Sequence record: PV357169.1
DNA from: a phage
Reading direction: 5' to 3' (one strand)
Length of the DNA stretch: 43,293 nt
Part shown: positions 9,872-43,293 of the stretch, piece by piece
Numbering within the stretch: position 1 is the first letter of the stretch
Layout: every line of letters starts with the position of its first letter
The notes under the pieces: generated by a model
What the model was told of the DNA's origin: nothing
Seen by the model: the letters and a program-made list of their open reading frames with translations, nothing else
Database searches by the model: none
Program-made: the position numbers and the translations under genes

Positions 9872-10019
9872 ACCGTCCGACATTAACTATCTCGACGAAG
9901 AGGTAATTAAGGCGTACGCTGCATCTGTGGGTACTTTCAGCATACGGCCCGTGCTAATTAGCAGCCGGCTGATTGTGCACTTGGCTGTCAATAAGGCGCG
10001 GAGGATTAATTGGAGATGA
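9864..10019 (+). CDS. Hypothetical protein (51 aa)
   Basis: Internal ATG of track ORF 9831-10019 with GGAGAAGG RBS. Confidence 0.35.
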   Translation: MLKPSDINYLDEEVIKAYAASVGTFSIRPVLISSRLIVHLAVNKARRINWR

Positions 10020-10465
10020 CAGATTGTATCGACCACGGGCAGAAGGGAAGCACTTGCCGAGGAAAGTGCGCTGGATATGGCCGCTCCAGATTTGATGGAG
10101 AGACAACTGGAAGCCACCGCAAAGCGTATTGTATAGCCCACAACTTGAAGCTGAGTGATATCGCGGGACTTGTAGTCCGGCATTCGTGTGACAATCCTCG
10201 GTGCATAAATCCGGAGCACCTGCTACTAGGGACTTCTAGTGATAATATGCAGGACCGAAATAAAGGTGCGCGTAATTTGCTGGGCAGCCGCAACCCTGCT
10301 GCCAGACTTACCCCAGAAGACGTGCACAGTATACGAGAAGCATATGCTGGCGGTGAGACCCAGGTATCTATAGCGAGACGCTTCGGGATAAGTCAAGGAT
10401 ACATATCTAATATCATAAAGGGGAGGGTATGGAATGAGCAGAAGCATCCTGATAACGGATTATGA
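10010..10465 (+). CDS. HNH homing endonuclease (copy 1)
   Basis: HSCDNPRCINPEHLLLGT HNH core; paralog of 13155-13589; 3' end overlaps the DNA polymerase start by 32 nt. Confidence 0.8.
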   Translation: MEMTDCIDHGQKGSTCRGKCAGYGRSRFDGETTGSHRKAYCIAHNLKLSDIAGLVVRHSCDNPRCINPEHLLLGTSSDNMQDRNKGARNLLGSRNPAARLTPEDVHSIREAYAGGETQVSIARRFGISQGYISNIIKGRVWNEQKHPDNGL

Positions 10466-13154: not shown

Positions 13155-13589
13155 ATGTCGATGTGCATTGACCATGGGTATACCAAATGCCTTAATAAGA
13201 ACGGGTACCGCCGGGCATGGTATAAGCCAACTAAACAATTGGAGCTTCTGCACCGGGTGGTGTACGCTGAGCATAACGGGATAGACATAAGGGCAATGGC
13301 CGGGCTGTCTGTTAGACACACCTGCGATAACCCTAGGTGCATTAATCCAGAGCACTTAGTGCTAGGGACGCACTTGGATAATATGAATGACCGTGCGGAA
13401 CGTGGAAGGAACCCAGATGTACGGGGAGAGCGAAACCCAAAAGCACTGCTATCTTGGGACGCCGTGCGGGATATTAGGGCCAACTATGTCCCGTACAAGA
13501 AAGGTATGCGGCAACACTTTGCTAATAAGTATGGTGTGGGTGTACATGTAATCAGTGACGTGATAAGTAACAGGAGCTGGAATGCCTAA
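13155..13589 (+). CDS. HNH homing endonuclease (copy 2)
   Basis: RHTCDNPRCINPEHLVLGT HNH core; AAGAGGA RBS. Confidence 0.8.
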   Translation: MSMCIDHGYTKCLNKNGYRRAWYKPTKQLELLHRVVYAEHNGIDIRAMAGLSVRHTCDNPRCINPEHLVLGTHLDNMNDRAERGRNPDVRGERNPKALLSWDAVRDIRANYVPYKKGMRQHFANKYGVGVHVISDVISNRSWNA

Positions 13590-25526: not shown

Positions 25527-25724
25527 ATGGCAGTAATCGCCGTGTTCGGTCTGGAGACTCTCAAGGCCAACGCTGCTCAACGTGAGGCGGTAAAAGCCGC
25601 CTCCGAGGTAGCGAAGCACATTCAAGTAGGTTCGGTCGAATCTGGCCGCAAAGCTACTAAGCGTACCCGCAAAGCTGTTGATGCAGTAGCCGACGCAGCA
25701 GCTGGTACAGAAACTAAAGAGTAA
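25527..25724 (+). CDS. Small hypothetical protein between capsid gene and terminator (65 aa)
   Basis: Own GGAGG RBS 12 nt after the capsid stop. Confidence 0.4.
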   Translation: MAVIAVFGLETLKANAAQREAVKAASEVAKHIQVGSVESGRKATKRTRKAVDAVADAAAGTETKE

Positions 25725-25727
25725 TAT

Positions 25728-25770
25728 GCGCCCCTGGTGCCTTCGGGTGCCGGGGGCTTTTTTTTTTTGT
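25728..25770 (+). terminator. Rho-independent terminator after the capsid module
   Basis: GC-rich hairpin with TTCG loop (GCGCCCCTGGTGCC-TTCG-GGTGCCGGGGGC) followed by T11. Confidence 0.8.
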
Positions 25771-25813: not shown

Positions 25814-26374
25814 ATGAGAGAGTTAGACGCCATTAATTTGACGCTGGAAGCCCTAGGGGAATCTCGCGTTATGGATATCAACACTTCAAACCCTAGTGCG
25901 GGGTTAGCACGTTCTGCGCTCGCGCGTAATCGCAGAGGGTTGCTCAGTACTGGTTACTGGTTCAACGTAGTTGAGCGGGAGGTTACCCCTACAACTGATG
26001 GTTTTATTAAAATTCCATGGAACCATCTAGCTGTGTATGATGCGTGCTCCAACAATAAGTACGGTGTACGTGATGGAAACCTTTATAACCTAATCGAGCA
26101 GGACGAGTACTTCGATTCTCCTGTTAAGATTAAGGTGGTGCTGGACCTCAACTTTGAGGATCTTCCAGAGCATGCCGCCATGTGGATTGCAAACTACACT
26201 GCTGCACAGGTGTACCTGAATGACCTAGGCAGTGACGGCAACTACGCCAACTACGCTGCAGAGGCAGAGCGGTACAAGTCCCTGGTGTTGCGAGAGCATC
26301 TACGGAACCAGAAGTACAGTACCAGCAAGACCAGATTCGCACGTCGTATTCGTCGTGCACGCTTCATGATTTAA
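25814..26374 (+). CDS. Tail tubular protein A (T7 gp11-like)
   Basis: Size and position; some resemblance to recalled T7 gp11. Confidence 0.65.
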   Translation: MRELDAINLTLEALGESRVMDINTSNPSAGLARSALARNRRGLLSTGYWFNVVEREVTPTTDGFIKIPWNHLAVYDACSNNKYGVRDGNLYNLIEQDEYFDSPVKIKVVLDLNFEDLPEHAAMWIANYTAAQVYLNDLGSDGNYANYAAEAERYKSLVLREHLRNQKYSTSKTRFARRIRRARFMI

Positions 26375-26383
26375 GGAGAGGTT

Positions 26384-27478
26384 ATGGCACAATCATTAGA
26401 AGGCACCATTCAGAGTTTGCTCCAGGGTGTGTCCCAGCAGATTCCAAGAGAGCGCCAGCCCGGGCAACTTGGGGCTCAACTGAACATGCTCAGTGACCCG
26501 GTATCCGGAATACGTAGACGACCCCCAGCAGAGATTGTATGGGAGAGTAGTATCGACAATCCGGACCTAGACTCCCTGTATACAGAATACGTTGAGCGTG
26601 GTTCCGACGGTAGGCACCTGCTGATTAACACCAGTAACGGTAATTGGTGGCTATTGTCCAAGGATGGCAAATCCATTGTAAACAGCGGGAACGACCCGTA
26701 CTTCGTAACAACGGTAGGGCAGACCTCTATCCAGACTGCGAGTATTGCTGGGTTGACCTACATCCTGAATACAGAGATGGCTCCGAATGCAACTGTGGAC
26801 AACACTGGTCGAATTGACCCGAGCACCACGGGATTCTTCTACATCAAGACAGTGGCCTTCCAGAAGCGCTGGGAGGTTACTGTATCCTGGACAGGTGGTT
26901 CCGTATCAGGTTATTACAACGCCCCTGATGCAAGTCACGGCGAATCCGCAGAGTGGGTTTCCGCGCCGTATGTAGTTAGGGCCTTAATCGACGGGGATCC
27001 TAATGGTCAGGGTATAGGCTCAGCTATTACGGCGGCTGGTGGAAGTATAAGCCGTTTCGAGGGGTATATGTATATATCCGGACTGCCTAATCTCGTAGTT
27101 AGTACATCTGCTGGAGACACCTACGCCGTGGCATCTGGGCAGAGTAGGGTTCATCAAGAACAGGACCTACCTGCACAGCTACCAGCACAGGCTCACGGTA
27201 CGATGTGCCAAGTGGGTACAGCTTCAGCTGAGACAGCGTGGTATCAGTTCGACTATAATTCCCGCACCTGGTCAGAGGTTGGGGCCTACGGTAGCATCTC
27301 CAAAATTACTAACATGCCCCGGGAACTGGCATCGGATGATAACATCATTGCTCGTGAATGGGAGGGGCGTCTTGCTGGGAACGACGAAAACAACCAGGAC
27401 CCTGGGTTTATTGAGAATGGCTACATTACAGGTATAGCAGCATTCCAGGCCGTCTGGTGCTGCTTAGTGGTAGTGTAG
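26384..27478 (+). CDS. Tail tubular protein B, N-terminal fragment (frameshifted gene)
   Basis: 364-aa ORF that ends in an implausible tail (AVWCCLVVV); continues in the -1 frame from ~27415. Confidence 0.6.
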   Translation: MAQSLEGTIQSLLQGVSQQIPRERQPGQLGAQLNMLSDPVSGIRRRPPAEIVWESSIDNPDLDSLYTEYVERGSDGRHLLINTSNGNWWLLSKDGKSIVNSGNDPYFVTTVGQTSIQTASIAGLTYILNTEMAPNATVDNTGRIDPSTTGFFYIKTVAFQKRWEVTVSWTGGSVSGYYNAPDASHGESAEWVSAPYVVRALIDGDPNGQGIGSAITAAGGSISRFEGYMYISGLPNLVVSTSAGDTYAVASGQSRVHQEQDLPAQLPAQAHGTMCQVGTASAETAWYQFDYNSRTWSEVGAYGSISKITNMPRELASDDNIIAREWEGRLAGNDENNQDPGFIENGYITGIAAFQAVWCCLVVV

Positions 27479-28761
27479 TGGACATGTCAGCATCTGGGCT
27501 GTATCAGCGATTCTATCGCTCTACAGTAACCTCTCTGCTGGATACAGACCGTATCAGCATTAGCTCGGCATCTGCTCAGGATTCCGTGTACCGTACAGCT
27601 ATACAATTCAACCGAGACTTGGTTCTGTTTGCAAATAGCATGCAGGCTGTAGTGCCTGGGTCAGTAGTGCTTACTCCAACTAACGCCAGTATTAGCATCA
27701 CTAGCACCTACGAATGTGACAGCCGAGTAACGCCAGTAATGGCTGGGCAGACTGTGATTTACCCGAACAAGCGCAACAGCAGCTACGCGGGTATTCTGGA
27801 GCTTATCCCATCCCCGTATACTGCCTCACAATATACTACGCAGGATGCGACTGTGCACCTCCCTCGGTATATCCATGGGAGGGTGCTGCAGATGCAAAAC
27901 TCCAGTGTCACTAATATGGCGTTTGTGCGTATGTCCGGACAGCGCAAGAGTCTGCTGGTATATGAGTTCATGTGGGGTGGACAGGATGGTGGTAAGGTGC
28001 AATCAGCCTGGCACCAATGGACGTTCCCGTATAATATTCTGAGCGTGCAGGCACTTGAAGATGAAGTGTTCCTGTACCTGCAAGGGCCAAGCCCGGGCAA
28101 TAAACTTCTGATTTTGTCTATGGACCCACGCGAGGGGTACAACCTCGGCAGTGAGTATACAGATGCGTACTCGGACTTGCAGACGCAAGTTACTGTAAGC
28201 GCCGGAGTGTTAACAGTGCCCGCAGTATTGCGCCCAGCGGGTTGGGCGGATACGTACAAAGAGGACCTAATCCTCACGTACCCAGCCAACAATCCTATGG
28301 GACCTACCGAAGTAGGGTTACAGGATATTGCCGGTACAAATCAGCTCAGAGTCGTACGTGGTGTTCCTGATGGGCAGTATATCCTGGGTCGCAGGTACAA
28401 TAGCGCATTCACTCTGACTACCCCAGTACTTCGGGATCAGAATGATAAGTTAGTTGGTAGCGGGCACGTGCGTTTGTTGCGTCTGGATGTAGCAGTACGT
28501 AACTCCGGGCACTTTGATGTGCATGTAACGGATACGCCCCGGGATGTTGACTGGAGTGGAGAACTCACAGGTATCTTGATGAACTCCAAGGAGCTGACGT
28601 TGGGGCAGACCTTGCGTATGGACTTGGCTACCATCACGGTGCCGTGCCGCACTAACGCGGATACTACGGAAATCACTTTGTATACCAAGGGCTCCCAGGA
28701 GCTGAACGTGCTGGATATCTCTTATATCCTGCGCTACAACCAACGCAGACGGAGGATTTAA
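27457..28761 (+). CDS. Tail tubular protein B, C-terminal fragment
   Basis: 434-aa ORF; the two fragments sum to ~798 aa, about the size of T7 gp12. Confidence 0.6.
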   Translation: MLLSGSVVDMSASGLYQRFYRSTVTSLLDTDRISISSASAQDSVYRTAIQFNRDLVLFANSMQAVVPGSVVLTPTNASISITSTYECDSRVTPVMAGQTVIYPNKRNSSYAGILELIPSPYTASQYTTQDATVHLPRYIHGRVLQMQNSSVTNMAFVRMSGQRKSLLVYEFMWGGQDGGKVQSAWHQWTFPYNILSVQALEDEVFLYLQGPSPGNKLLILSMDPREGYNLGSEYTDAYSDLQTQVTVSAGVLTVPAVLRPAGWADTYKEDLILTYPANNPMGPTEVGLQDIAGTNQLRVVRGVPDGQYILGRRYNSAFTLTTPVLRDQNDKLVGSGHVRLLRLDVAVRNSGHFDVHVTDTPRDVDWSGELTGILMNSKELTLGQTLRMDLATITVPCRTNADTTEITLYTKGSQELNVLDISYILRYNQRRRRI

Positions 28762-28762
28762 T

Positions 28763-29350
28763 ATGGGTATGTGGTGGGCCGCCGCCGCCCTAGCAGGCTC
28801 TAAACTGCTTGGTGCTGGGGCGCAGATTGAGGTTGCCAAAGCACGTAACAAAGCAGTAATTCAGCAGACAGCGAAGCAGCTTAACGATATTGCGCTGCAA
28901 CGTGCCCAGTCCAGGGACCGGACTGAGGTTGCTCTGTTCAACATTCAACAGCAGAAGCTGCAAGCACAGAGTCAGGTAGGCCTGCAAGCTGCTGCGTCCG
29001 GTACTATGGGGGCGTCTGTTAAGGATGCCGTAGCAACCGTGAATACAGTAGCAGATCGTCAGATATCTGGAATCAGGTCCCAGCAGGCCACTCAGGAAGA
29101 GGGCTACCGAATGATGGTGGATAAGGCCGTGGATAGCGGATTAGCCAATATGGACCTGGAGAGCGGATACGATAAGATGTTTAATGCCGCCTTGGGCTTT
29201 GGTGGGCAACTGCTCGGGCAATACATAGGGAATGAACTATCCAAGAGCACTCCCGATAGTACCGACACCGCCCCGGAGCCTGCAGCAGATAATTCGTTCT
29301 TGTATGACCTATGGGGCAGCAAGGGTAATAGCAAAGTACACACCTGGTAA
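28763..29350 (+). CDS. Internal virion protein A (putative)
   Basis: Position after the tail tubular genes; N-terminal hydrophobic segment. Confidence 0.5.
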   Translation: MGMWWAAAALAGSKLLGAGAQIEVAKARNKAVIQQTAKQLNDIALQRAQSRDRTEVALFNIQQQKLQAQSQVGLQAAASGTMGASVKDAVATVNTVADRQISGIRSQQATQEEGYRMMVDKAVDSGLANMDLESGYDKMFNAALGFGGQLLGQYIGNELSKSTPDSTDTAPEPAADNSFLYDLWGSKGNSKVHTW

Positions 29351-32099: not shown

Positions 32100-35000
32100 A
32101 TGGCTCAGTTTCTGAACCAAGAACCGAATCCACAGGAAAAGGATTCTGCTAAGGGCGCAACACTTAAACCTGCGCCTGCGCGTATAGATTGGAACGATGC
32201 GGGTGATGACGGCTTGAATGCACTGGAGCGTGCCTCCTTACTAGCACAGGCCAAGACTCCTGCTACTACAGCTGCAGAGAGCTTTGCGTCTGGTATGGGT
32301 AATAGCATCATAGCTGCAGCTATCCGTAAAGCCTCCGCCCCGGCATTTGTCCCAGAGCAGGGTTTTGATGCTAAGAAGCAATTAAGCACTGATTCACGGG
32401 CTAAACTCTATACCCCTAATCAAGAAGAAATTGATTACTTACATGGAGCAGTGTCTCTGGAGGACTATAACTACCGCATACAGCAGATGCTTGATCAGCG
32501 TCATCGCGATCGCTTAATGGCTGACAACACAATAGCTGGGTTCGCTGGGGCTATAGCAGGTGACTCTCCATTTCTCCTAGCTCCGATGTCTGCGGCAGGT
32601 ATCGCTGGTCGGGCTGGCTTAGCAGTGCGCACTGCTATCCGCGCAGCGGATGTAGGTACGGCTGTTTATGCACAGGACCAACTGGGTCAGTCTGCGGCAG
32701 TTACTGCTCTTGTAGCAGGTGTAGCTGGTCTAGACCAACTCTGGGATATCCGTAGGGCTGTACGCGCATCTACGGCAGCTGCGTCAACTACAAGAGCTGC
32801 TGAGACCACCCCTAATGCTGCTACGGCAACTTCCCGCACTGCTCCGGAAGAAGTAGCAACAAGTCGCAATGTGGTAGATTCCCCTGCTGGCCCGTCTAAT
32901 GCGCAAGCTGATAGTGCTGCGGTTGCTAAAACCACTGACGGTTTACCAGAAGGTTTAAGCTTGAACGTGCTGGATGATGTAGAGCACCACGCTTACTCTG
33001 GTGTACGCGTACCTGGTATAGAGGTAGAAGTAAATCGCGGAGATAAGTTGGTTGGTGTTGTGCAGGCTTATCGTGTAGGTGATGATTTACAAGTAGCACA
33101 TGCCTGGGTTGATAAATCCCTGCGTGGCAAGGGAGTAGGTGCGAGCATGTACAAAGCACTAGTTAAGCGCGCTACTGATGCAGGATATGGTAACTTGTTG
33201 TCTGATAACTCAGTAACTGCGTCTGCTCAGCAGATGTGGCGCAAACTTGGTGCTACCAAAACCAAAGATTTTAAAGAACTAACGGACGGTATTGAAGGGC
33301 AGCGTTATGCAGTCTCTGCGGATGAAAAGTCCCCACTCTTTACTCTAGACTTGAAACGTCCTGTGTTTGACCCAGATGCGCCTACAACTCGTACAGCGAG
33401 GGATGTTAATGTTACAGGAGTAGGAGAGGGGGAAGAAATCCTCACCAAAGCACTGGATGAACCGATAAAAGTCCTTAGAAACAACACTACTACTGTTAAC
33501 ATTAAAGCGCAGGACGTAGTTCGATTCCTAAAGACCTCTGAGCATTTATCTAAGGGTCAGAAGGCTATCCTGGACACCCTGGGCGATGCAGTACAGGACA
33601 TTGATTTTAAGTTGGTGGCAGGCTCTTCTAACCGTAGCCACTACAGCTTTCCACTGGTATCAAGAACTGATAGGGGTTTTGTATCTTTACGTGCCCCTAA
33701 GAAAGCTAATGGAAGTACTTGGACAACTGTAGGCGACGCCCTACGTGCCATGGACGCCGATACTAGTCGAGTAGCAGTGCACGAGCTGATTCACGCTGCC
33801 ACTACTAGGGCCCTTAAGCGGAATCCTGAAATTGCTAGTAAGCTGGAAGAGGTGCGCGCTGCAATAGCAGCTGATTCAACCCTCAGTGATAAGCTTAAGT
33901 ACTACGCAAGCGATGTGCACGAGATGCTAGCTGGACTAGGTGATAGCCCTGAGTGGGTGGAGTATCTCTCTAAAACTCAATCTCCTACTGGTAGGAGTAT
34001 GCTCCGCCAGATTGGTGAGTACATCATGAATGCCCTGGGGATTCGCACCAAGGGGTCCGCTCTGGAGGATGTTCTGGACGCGTACGAGGATGCTGTCAAG
34101 TGGACAGCAAAGGACTACGCAGAACAAGTTCAGAGCTTCCGCAGCGAATCTTTCCAGGACCTAGCGGATACATCGGTTAAGAATGAGGCCCTGAAAGCTC
34201 AGACTATGATGGACACGGCCAAGCGTAAGTTAGCCACTATGTTCTCCCTGTATGATAACATCGCAGAGGGTAGCGAGGACCTGGCACGCTTACTGGTATC
34301 TGATGCTACTGCTGTAGGCGGTCGTAAACCGTCTGTGGTGGACTTCAAGCGTAACCTTACGTTGGAGATGGATGCTAGTGCCAGTGTAGTTGAGGACGCT
34401 ATACTTGGTGCCCTCAAGGCCAAAGGTGTAGGTTTCATAGACCGCTTCTTCCACCGTAGCAACTTCCGAGCAGCTCGTGCTGACTTAGAAGATCGCTTGG
34501 GCCGTTACCTGGACTCTGCGTACAGCGCTGAGGTTAATGGACGCCCTGTACCTCTGCCGGACTCTGACTTGGTTCCGCTAGTAGAGGCGTACCGCAACTC
34601 CGGCTGGGCCAGTAAGTGGCACGATCACATGACTGCTGCCGGACTGGTGGATGACGGTACTCTGATTAAATCGGACTATTACTTCCCTCGCCAGTACAGC
34701 TACGATAAGATGCGCCAAGGTATTGCAAATGGTCGCTCCCTGGATAATTATCGGGATCTGTTCCGTCAGGCATTGCGTGACGTGTACCCGTCTATGGAAC
34801 CCGAAGTTGTCCAGCGCGTTGCTAAGGAGATGGTTGACGGTATCTATAACGGACGCTCCTCGGCTTCTGGTCCTATGTGGAAGCAACTCATCAATGGTAT
34901 GGGTAATGATGAAGTAGTTATGGCCATGCGTAATGCTGGCGTAGACGAGAGTGCAATCCAGAGTTTCTTGGCAGGTAATGTCCGAGAATCTGGCGCTACC

Positions 35001-36362
35001 TCGCCTGCTAAGAACCTCCGTCAACGTACCCGCTTCAACATGGACAAAGAGTACATCGTAGACGGTCAGGTTATGCGCATGCAGGATCTGATGGATACTG
35101 ATGTAGCCAAGGTAATGCACGGTTACACCAACCGCATGTCAGGTCGTGTAGGTATGGCTTACGCCGGAGTCTCTGACCTAAAAACACTAGAGACGATGAT
35201 TAACGAGTCCAAACACGCTCTGGCTGATTCCGGTAAGTGGGAGAAGACCGTTAATGACACCATCGACTTTATCTTAGGTGGGGCACCAGCCGACGCCGGT
35301 CAAATGCCGGACCTGCTCCGTGCAGCCGGTAACATGGCCAACGCTACCATGCTTAAGAACTCTGGGTTGTACCAGCTTACTGACACCGCTCTAGCGCTGA
35401 AAGAGTTTGGTATGTCCCGAGTACTCCGCAGTATGCGTGAGCAGCCCTGGTTTAAAGAGGGTGCCGTAGCTATTCGCACTCCGGATATGGCTAGTCGTCT
35501 GGATGCAATCCTACGTGGTAGTATCCAGAAGGAGATGCGCTTCCGCTGGTTGAATACCTACGCAGACGATAACTTGGACCTGACCCGTCAGGCTTCCTGG
35601 TTTAATGTCACCCAGAACGTTGGACAGGCTGCGCGTCACGTCAACGGTATGAGTATGGTACATCGACTGCAGGTTAACCTTAACTCAGGTATTGTAGCGG
35701 ATGAGCTCCAGCAGATGTTCAAGGGCGACGCTGAGGCGTTTAAGCGTCTGGAGCGTTTCGGGCTTACCCGCGACGTTGCAGACCGTGCCATTGCTGCTAA
35801 CAAGGCTAATCCTGGTGCTATGTTCCAGCCGGACCTGCAAATGCAGATTGAGGTGGTAGGTACCAGAATGATGGACTACCTGGTGCAGCAAGTACGTACC
35901 GGTGAGACCTCGCACTTCGCACAGTTTAACCCTATTGGCAAGATAATTGTAGGTTACCAGAGCTTCGCCCTGGCTGCCACCAACAAGATTCTACGTAGGG
36001 AGCTGAGCGACGCTGGATGGATTGGCGTAGCCCATATTATGGCGTACCAGTTCCCGTTAATGCTACTGGCTACTATGGCTAAGCATGGTATGGATGGGAA
36101 GGACGTAGACACCCAGAAGCTAATCAGTGAATCTGTGATGGGTATGAGCGCCATTGGTGGGATCTCGCTTCTGCAGGATATCTTCACTGGGGACTCACCG
36201 CGTCACTCCTTGGCGTCTATGGGTTACGTTACAGGGCTGTTGGGTGCGCTGCAGGATCTGGCTACTGGGGATATGGATATCCAGACCTTCACTAAGCAGG
36301 TCCCGTTAATCCAGGAATTCGCTCCTACGCGAGCTATAATCAATAACTTCGGAGACGATTAA
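32100..36362 (+). CDS. Internal virion protein C (T7 gp16-like ejection protein, 1420 aa) with GNAT-like and HExxH segments
   Basis: Largest ORF, in the conserved position; Ala-rich N-terminus; RGKGVG segment (~aa 345) and HELIH (~aa 561). Confidence 0.6.
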   Translation: MAQFLNQEPNPQEKDSAKGATLKPAPARIDWNDAGDDGLNALERASLLAQAKTPATTAAESFASGMGNSIIAAAIRKASAPAFVPEQGFDAKKQLSTDSRAKLYTPNQEEIDYLHGAVSLEDYNYRIQQMLDQRHRDRLMADNTIAGFAGAIAGDSPFLLAPMSAAGIAGRAGLAVRTAIRAADVGTAVYAQDQLGQSAAVTALVAGVAGLDQLWDIRRAVRASTAAASTTRAAETTPNAATATSRTAPEEVATSRNVVDSPAGPSNAQADSAAVAKTTDGLPEGLSLNVLDDVEHHAYSGVRVPGIEVEVNRGDKLVGVVQAYRVGDDLQVAHAWVDKSLRGKGVGASMYKALVKRATDAGYGNLLSDNSVTASAQQMWRKLGATKTKDFKELTDGIEGQRYAVSADEKSPLFTLDLKRPVFDPDAPTTRTARDVNVTGVGEGEEILTKALDEPIKVLRNNTTTVNIKAQDVVRFLKTSEHLSKGQKAILDTLGDAVQDIDFKLVAGSSNRSHYSFPLVSRTDRGFVSLRAPKKANGSTWTTVGDALRAMDADTSRVAVHELIHAATTRALKRNPEIASKLEEVRAAIAADSTLSDKLKYYASDVHEMLAGLGDSPEWVEYLSKTQSPTGRSMLRQIGEYIMNALGIRTKGSALEDVLDAYEDAVKWTAKDYAEQVQSFRSESFQDLADTSVKNEALKAQTMMDTAKRKLATMFSLYDNIAEGSEDLARLLVSDATAVGGRKPSVVDFKRNLTLEMDASASVVEDAILGALKAKGVGFIDRFFHRSNFRAARADLEDRLGRYLDSAYSAEVNGRPVPLPDSDLVPLVEAYRNSGWASKWHDHMTAAGLVDDGTLIKSDYYFPRQYSYDKMRQGIANGRSLDNYRDLFRQALRDVYPSMEPEVVQRVAKEMVDGIYNGRSSASGPMWKQLINGMGNDEVVMAMRNAGVDESAIQSFLAGNVRESGATSPAKNLRQRTRFNMDKEYIVDGQVMRMQDLMDTDVAKVMHGYTNRMSGRVGMAYAGVSDLKTLETMINESKHALADSGKWEKTVNDTIDFILGGAPADAGQMPDLLRAAGNMANATMLKNSGLYQLTDTALALKEFGMSRVLRSMREQPWFKEGAVAIRTPDMASRLDAILRGSIQKEMRFRWLNTYADDNLDLTRQASWFNVTQNVGQAARHVNGMSMVHRLQVNLNSGIVADELQQMFKGDAEAFKRLERFGLTRDVADRAIAANKANPGAMFQPDLQMQIEVVGTRMMDYLVQQVRTGETSHFAQFNPIGKIIVGYQSFALAATNKILRRELSDAGWIGVAHIMAYQFPLMLLATMAKHGMDGKDVDTQKLISESVMGMSAIGGISLLQDIFTGDSPRHSLASMGYVTGLLGALQDLATGDMDIQTFTKQVPLIQEFAPTRAIINNFGDD
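33408..33424 (+). promoter_or_regulatory. Copy 3 of conserved motif ATGTTACAGGAGTAGGA, inside the internal virion protein C gene
   Basis: Exact 17-mer; encodes NVTGVG in frame. Confidence 0.35.
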
Positions 36363-43045: not shown

Positions 43046-43293
43046 ATGAACGAAATGTTCTCACAAGATGGTAAAGGTTCAACGGGAATCTTAACTAATA
43101 AACAAGCAGTGGCTCGACACTTCGGAGTTAAGCAATCAGAGGTTGTTTACTTCTCAGTGGGTGCTCTGCTTGCTGGTTACAAAGTCATCTATGACAAAGT
43201 GACACAGCGTGCTTACTCATTACCTGCTGATATTGGTTCTGGGGTTACTGTTGTAAGCCTTAGTCCTGCCGGAGTATTAGTACACTCTGCCGG
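43046..43293 (+). CDS. 5' part of the junction-spanning gene (continues at 1-314 after removing the 91-nt overlap)
   Basis: ATG with GAGG RBS; the ORF runs off the end of the window. Confidence 0.5.
   Translation, partial: MNEMFSQDGKGSTGILTNKQAVARHFGVKQSEVVYFSVGALLAGYKVIYDKVTQRAYSLPADIGSGVTVVSLSPAGVLVHSA
43203..43293 (+). repeat. 91-nt exact duplicate of window positions 1-91 (circular-assembly overlap)
   Basis: Seen directly; identical base for base. Confidence 0.95.

Follow-up and report, generated by a model that had tools for sequence, protein, structure and literature searches.

In the 43,293-nt phage sequence PV357169.1 (the whole stretch analysed here, hereafter the window), two adjacent open reading frames (ORFs) of 364 and 434 aa lie in different frames between positions 26,384 and 28,761. 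The initial annotation of this locus read them as one tail tubular protein B split by a -1 frameshift, and named an assembly indel, a mutation in a non-viable or helper-dependent genome, or a programmed frameshift as its possible causes. We asked which of these accounts for the split and whether two fragments could serve in place of one protein.

The genetics of T7 has established the nozzle (tail tubular protein B) as an essential structural protein. Because the nozzle is essential in T7-like phages, a null allele at majority level in a strictly lytic phage is a priori unlikely. The T7 nozzle gp12 has a structural role in the tail, and its fold comprises a central seven-bladed beta-propeller together with a platform, a fiber dock and a nozzle tip (PMC6702177). 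If the frameshift were programmed or the split functional, the locus would reveal a new route of expression or assembly for an essential podovirus tail protein; the evidence presented below stands strongly against both.

Results

Two ORFs that make up one nozzle gene

The exact coordinates reported earlier for the two ORFs were confirmed (Table 1). In a Pfam search, ORF1 matched positions 4-355 and ORF2 positions 360-794 of the 794-position Phage_nozzle model PF25675 (E=2.9e-55 and E=4.9e-95, respectively). Because the ORFs cover complementary parts of one model, they are halves of a single T7-gp12-type nozzle gene, a correspondence far beyond chance. When the proteins of related phages were aligned to the window by tblastn, nozzle residues 1-364 fell in one frame, with 97-98% identity for the native N-terminal part, and residues 355-795 in the other. 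A TGA at 27412-27414 closes the -1 frame, which is open from 27415 on, as had been proposed, and reads ...GRLVLLSGSVVDMSASGLYQRF. Within the native gene, the GTG at which the mechanically listed ORF2 begins encodes an internal Val and is not a real start.

Table 1. Coordinates of the nozzle gene parts, ORFs and deletion site (positions in the window)
Feature	Position	Strand	Description	Evidence
Shine-Dalgarno of nozzle gene	26373..26381	+	AAGGAGAGG	anti-SD duplex -9.2 kcal/mol vs background mean -2.95
ORF1	26384-27478	+	364 aa; C-terminal end ...AAFQAVWCCLVVV / ...GIAAFQAVWCCLVVV, each followed by the stop	ORF list and translation
Native N-terminal coding part	26384..27448	+	codons 1-355, ending ...GIAAFQ	Pfam positions 4-355; tblastn 97-98% identity
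Deletion site	27448..27449	+	GG vs GGG in all relatives; CCAGG-CCGTC vs CCAGGGCCGTC	DNA alignment, indel list, public contigs
Native C-terminal coding part	27448..28761	+	codons 356-792, -1 frame, stop 28759-28761	restored frame, Pfam, tblastn
Out-of-frame ORF1 tail	27449..27478	+	AVWCCLVVV and TAG stop (27476-27478)	translation
ORF2 as mechanically listed	27457-28761	+	434 aa, GTG start, N-terminus MLLSGSVVDMSASGLYQRF...	ORF list

The surroundings of the gene are those expected of the family. Upstream lies the adaptor gene (gp11; PF17212 Tube, 25814-26374) and downstream the gene for a gp14-like internal virion protein (PF24072 T7_gp14, 28763-29350), an order of adaptor, nozzle and gp14-like protein that is the family order and is the same in the relatives. 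A ribosome-binding site is annotated in phage Minorna at the same place as the Shine-Dalgarno of the nozzle gene. Judged by sequence and synteny, the gene is an ordinary member of the Phage_nozzle/T7 gp12 family, carried by a Drulisvirus-like genome of the Autographiviridae. In the sequence as given, two ORFs in different frames take the place of one polypeptide of approximately 790 aa; adding one G at 27448-27449 yields such a polypeptide.

Two further features lie upstream, behind the capsid region. A GC-rich hairpin (GCCCCTGGTGCCTTCGGGTGCCGGGGGC) followed by a T run (25727-25770) resembles an intrinsic terminator, and Minorna has one annotated at the same place; the T run is 5 shorter than in AV102 and 1 longer than in Minorna and PSK2. 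Directly after the major capsid gene, a conserved 65-aa ORF (25527-25724) lies in the -1 frame relative to capsid. Because this ORF is preceded by a GGAGG ribosome-binding site of its own and, a short way upstream in the same frame, by a stop codon, it is a separate small gene and not a frameshift extension of the T7 10A/10B kind.

One G is missing relative to all close relatives

A megablast search with the region returned 238 phage records. The best matches, with 94-95% identity, were the Escherichia Drulisvirus phages (Autographiviridae, Slopekvirinae) AV102, EC22.5-2, Minorna, ZH5, PSK2 and phiHAO78-1, followed by Klebsiella KP34-like phages. In AV102, Minorna, ZH5 and phiHAO78-1, the gene carries names such as tail tubular protein B or non-contractile tail tubular protein Gp12. 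In these four phages and in PSK2, the nozzle is a single CDS of 2379 nt, compared with 2378 nt for the same region of the window, as is expected of a single gene broken by the frame change that had been suggested.

Alignment to AV102, Minorna, ZH5 and phiHAO78-1 located the missing base directly. The relatives read CCAGGGCCGTC where the window reads CCAGGCCGTC; across 27340-27540, CATTCCAGGGCCGTCTGG in the four relatives stands against CATTCCAGGCCGTCTGG in the window, with one G as the single gap. Besides this G, the flanks in the 200-nt alignment show a handful of single-base differences and are otherwise near-identical to the relatives. The junction, which had been placed between 27415 and 27478, is thus at 27448-27449. 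It had also been stated that there is no homopolymer at the site, and indeed no run of three or more identical bases is left in the overlap; the lesion itself, though, is a loss from a run of three G, and nothing longer.

The codons of the relatives at the site are CAG GGC CGT CTG GTG (Q G R L V). Frame 0 of the window has CAG GCC GTC TGG TGC TGC TTA GTG GTA GTG TAG instead, encoding Q A V W C C L V V V followed by a stop, and the -1 frame reads GGC CGT CTG GTG..., starting at base 27448, which codon 355 and the native C-terminal part have in common. The hydrophobic end AVWCCLVVV, earlier judged implausible, is not native protein sequence: it is out of frame, and the relatives have GRLVLLSGSVV there. 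With one G added, an open frame of 792 aa results that is 97.9-98.4% identical over its full length to the proteins of the four relatives.

Elsewhere in the window, the gp16-like internal virion (ejection) protein (32100-36362) has 1420 aa in the window and in ZH5 vs 1232 aa in AV102, Minorna and PSK2, and the extra ~564 nt (~32760-33360) encode a GNAT acetyltransferase domain (aa 311-401, PF00583, E=6e-7). The replication module contains two HNH_3 homing-endonuclease-like ORFs (10010-10465 and 13155-13589), each ~40% identical to relatives of the other; among the close relatives, endonuclease genes of this kind vary in presence and in position.

The lesion is very young

The codon differences between the window and AV102 comprise 40 synonymous and 2 non-synonymous changes upstream of the break, and 55 and 11 downstream. 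In both halves, codon differences from the relatives are overwhelmingly synonymous, and these ratios equal or slightly exceed the highest found among the relatives themselves. Among the codon changes private to the window, 37 of 40 are synonymous; downstream of the break the figure is 22 of 25, and the other three changes are conservative (N466S, G607A, K647Q). No sign of relaxed selection downstream of the break was seen in the codon differences from the relatives. Because the private changes downstream are mostly synonymous, the downstream frame was under purifying selection along the lineage of the window, and because it stayed so, the lesion is extremely recent.

The frameshift is younger than essentially all of the divergence of the window, which fits either a sequencing error or a mutation that had just arisen. 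A young lesion free of secondary damage agrees as well with a fresh mutation as with an error, and the sequence as given does carry GG. The deletion could be real, the nozzle gene having undergone a spontaneous loss-of-function mutation very recently; we consider this unlikely, though not negligibly so. In that case a defective variant would have been captured, for example from a low-coverage metagenome or a mixed lysate in which co-infecting wild-type phage supplied gp12 in trans.

The GG allele was found only in the window

We scanned the IMG/VR, metagenome and genome collections for the junction pattern GCAGCATTCCAGG[N0-1]CCGTCTGGTGCTGCT. Six IMG/VR contigs and two metagenome contigs matched, all eight with the 29-nt GGG form; the genome collection gave no match to the pattern, and the GG allele was found in none of the three collections. 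The protein is contiguous across the junction in all eight independent contigs (six with the full 792 aa; L010 and L016 partial). The absence of the allele from every other sequence in these viral, metagenome and genome collections counts against a real deletion.

Contiguity is also the rule at greater distance. A 60-aa peptide spanning the junction was contiguous in one frame with at least 80% coverage in 709 of 712 phage records, which range from Klebsiella and Escherichia phages out to phiKMV-like phages of Acinetobacter, Vibrio and Pseudomonas. Two of the three exceptions are among the matches listed: MH885472.1, which is fragmentary, and a partial record of 17.7 kb. A protein homologue search with ORF1 returned seven proteins, all of them fragments, and no full-length relatives. 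No independent copy of this exact phage emerged: its exact ORF1, gp11 and gp14 proteins are not on record, and its capsid protein was found only on two short Logan contigs that end before the nozzle gene.

Relatives with two separate genes of these sizes at this position, the arrangement that the initial annotation had named as evidence against a frameshift, were looked for and not found. Members of the nozzle family do occur elsewhere as two or more adjacent ORFs, with breaks at positions that differ from that of the window: near aa 222-235 in Logan SRR32022400 (L017), near aa 201-219 in CYGL01000837.1 (L020), near aa 498 in ERZ2660480 (L019; 3.8x coverage), where two adjacent genes of 498 and 256 aa are called, and at multiple points in MH885472.1 (L018; Phage PBKP05). 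For L019, tblastn aligned nozzle residues 1-792 in a single frame, and its gene boundary would be consistent with an in-frame stop. In the 30-kb record L018, the nozzle gene and most of its neighbours are chopped into many short ORFs; this record appears heavily error-laden or rearranged and would be a poor reference.

Because these copies break at differing positions, there is no conserved split point. A conserved two-gene architecture was rejected, as the split does not recur at the same point in related genomes. The breaks in L017, L019 and L020 do show that sporadic interruptions of this long gene turn up, whether real or artefactual, and to that extent they lend some support to a real deletion in the window.

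No signal for recoding at the junction

Under programmed recoding, full-length nozzle would be made by a -1 shift of the ribosome within 27415-27478, or by a slip of RNA polymerase there that inserts one more base. The frame relationship is what a -1 shift would repair, and T7-like phages use a -1 frameshift elsewhere, in the capsid gene 10A/10B (cited in PMC3082699). At the junction itself, neither an X XXY YYZ heptamer nor a run of at least three identical bases occurs in the overlap (27415-27478), and within 27413-27478 there is no codon whose tRNA would keep two base pairs (2/2 re-pairing) after a -1 slip. The minimum free energy of the 121 nt from 27440 to 27560 is -36.4 vs a mean of -35.9 for dinucleotide-shuffled sequences (z=-0.15). 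An upstream Shine-Dalgarno-like element was not found, anti-SD pairing being at background level.

The two-frame arrangement is also not conserved, since the close relatives all use a single frame and 709 of the 712 records are contiguous. The flanks are almost identical to those of relatives whose gene is read in one frame throughout, so that no recoding signal has arisen here. Transcriptional slippage was rejected as well; it needs a long homopolymer, and only GG is left at the site. A full-text literature search yielded no report of recoding or splitting of tail tubular protein B, and for KP34-like phages it turned up discussion of no frameshift other than the T7-type one of the capsid gene. 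Programmed frameshifting, which the initial annotation had kept as an option, is effectively excluded.

A functional split is very improbable

Alternatively, the split could be tolerated if the 355 native residues with their nine additional ones and a C-terminal fragment reassembled by fragment complementation of the beta-propeller. The C-terminal fragment would then arise by termination and reinitiation at GTG 27457 or ATG 27484, close to the TAG at 27476-27478. Of these two candidates for a restart, the GTG precedes the ORF1 stop by 19 nt and the ATG follows it by 5 nt, and a start at the GTG would lose only residues 356-358; moreover, as six nozzle copies would be needed per virion, low yields might suffice. 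A restart after the TAG is conceivable but would be fortuitous. Against it, the anti-SD pairing of the GTG and the ATG (-2.5 and -3.0 kcal/mol, respectively) equals the genome-wide background (mean -2.95), whereas nine genuine late-gene starts nearby score -5.6 to -12.1 kcal/mol.

The position of the break argues in the same direction. It falls between GIAAFQ and GRLVLLSG, in a motif that ranks among the best conserved in the family; 8es4 has this motif unchanged, and it can still be recognised in 9s0y and 7y22. The break aligns to approximately residue 355 of T7 gp12. In T7 gp12, the beta-propeller occupies the middle of the chain (W297 at blade 3, D478 in blade 6, C504 in blade 7, C554 in blade 1), and the first 45 residues supply three strands to the C-terminal platform barrel (PMC6702177). 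By inference, the break would lie inside the seven-bladed propeller. Because the break would fall in the propeller and the N-terminal 45 residues belong to the platform, the fragments would have to interlock in two domains. The N-terminal fragment would in addition carry a hydrophobic, Cys-rich tail of nine residues, and no relative has such an arrangement. We regard a functional split as very improbable, and even when it is combined with programmed recoding, the two together have little more probability than the split alone. If the GG allele were real and the phage viable, the locus would encode an essential virion protein with a naturally split beta-propeller.

The assembly looks clean elsewhere

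To see whether the assembly is generally poor, the window was searched by tblastn with every ORF, taken from stop to stop and 100 aa or longer, of four relatives with complete genomes. The only annotated gene with a frame-switching match in the 43-kb window was the nozzle gene; the remaining multi-frame matches were unannotated spurious ORFs or paralogous HNH endonucleases. The gap at 27448 is the only isolated, uncompensated indel of a length not divisible by three in a conserved coding region of the window, and it is present in comparison with all four relatives. Other such indels were clustered, mutually compensating gaps in divergent stretches, or were intergenic (e.g. the T tract at 25758). 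An error-riddled assembly was therefore rejected, as there was no other uncompensated coding frameshift in comparison with the four whole-genome relatives.

The ends of the window carry an exact direct repeat of 91 nt (bases 1-91 equal 43203-43293). They lie ~500-1500 nt away from the start or end of the records of the relatives and do not coincide with the genome ends of the relatives. Because this exact overlap sits at arbitrary positions relative to those ends, it suggests the overlap of a raw circularised de novo assembly, and not a physical terminal repeat or a finished, curated genome.

Discussion

Overall, a single nozzle gene has, in this sequence, lost one G from its GGG run, leaving GG at 27448-27449. 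Codon 355 (CAG) is therefore followed by nine aberrant, out-of-frame residues and a TAG, and the native reading goes on to 28761 in the -1 frame; the sequence has no element that would let ribosome or RNA polymerase correct the frame. The likeliest origin is a single-base undercall in the consensus, that is, an error of sequencing, assembly or polishing, and the real phage would carry an intact gene of 792 aa. The deletion and its position are observed directly; that it is a consensus error and not a real mutation is probable.

An undercall of GGG to GG is a classic sequencing or consensus error, and an artefact is further favoured by the uniqueness of the allele and by the unfinished, circularised look of the assembly. 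Against an artefact, a run of three bases is only a weak homopolymer for most platforms, and the remainder of the assembly is clean, so that the sequence does not look generally error-prone. A real deletion, in turn, meets the difficulty that, unless a helper is present, a lytic phage population that propagates cannot come to have a null allele as its consensus. For annotation, a single entry is appropriate: a nozzle (tail tubular protein B) gene that either is disrupted or has a suspected single-base error. Neither two proteins nor a case of recoding should be recorded. Nothing here amounts to a new kind of system, and the gene split is best treated as a non-feature.

Among known systems, the -1 frameshift of T7 gene 10A/10B resembles the window in the direction of the frame change and in the virus family, but its X XXY YYZ mechanism is inapplicable to the window, which is without slippery heptamer, stimulatory structure and conserved arrangement. 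The closest counterparts are the nozzle genes of AV102 (WPK32980.1), Minorna (QBP07066.1), ZH5 (UOL48262.1) and phiHAO78-1 (WWY66585.1), which share ~95% DNA identity with the window and the same gp11 and gp14-like neighbours, and whose 792-aa proteins are 98% identical to that of the window once the G is restored; they differ from it in being encoded by one CDS of 2379 nt, whereas the window has 2378 nt and hence two ORFs. The restored protein aligned end to end (1-792) with the solved nozzles 23sh ('nozzle gp13', E=0), 8es4 (Gp40, 2e-295) and 8vbx (gp51), and likewise end to end with the T7 gp12 nozzle (PDB 6R21, 1e-40). Of these, 23sh and 8es4 are KP34-like nozzles. As written in the window, the protein lies in two frames, broken at approximately residue 355.
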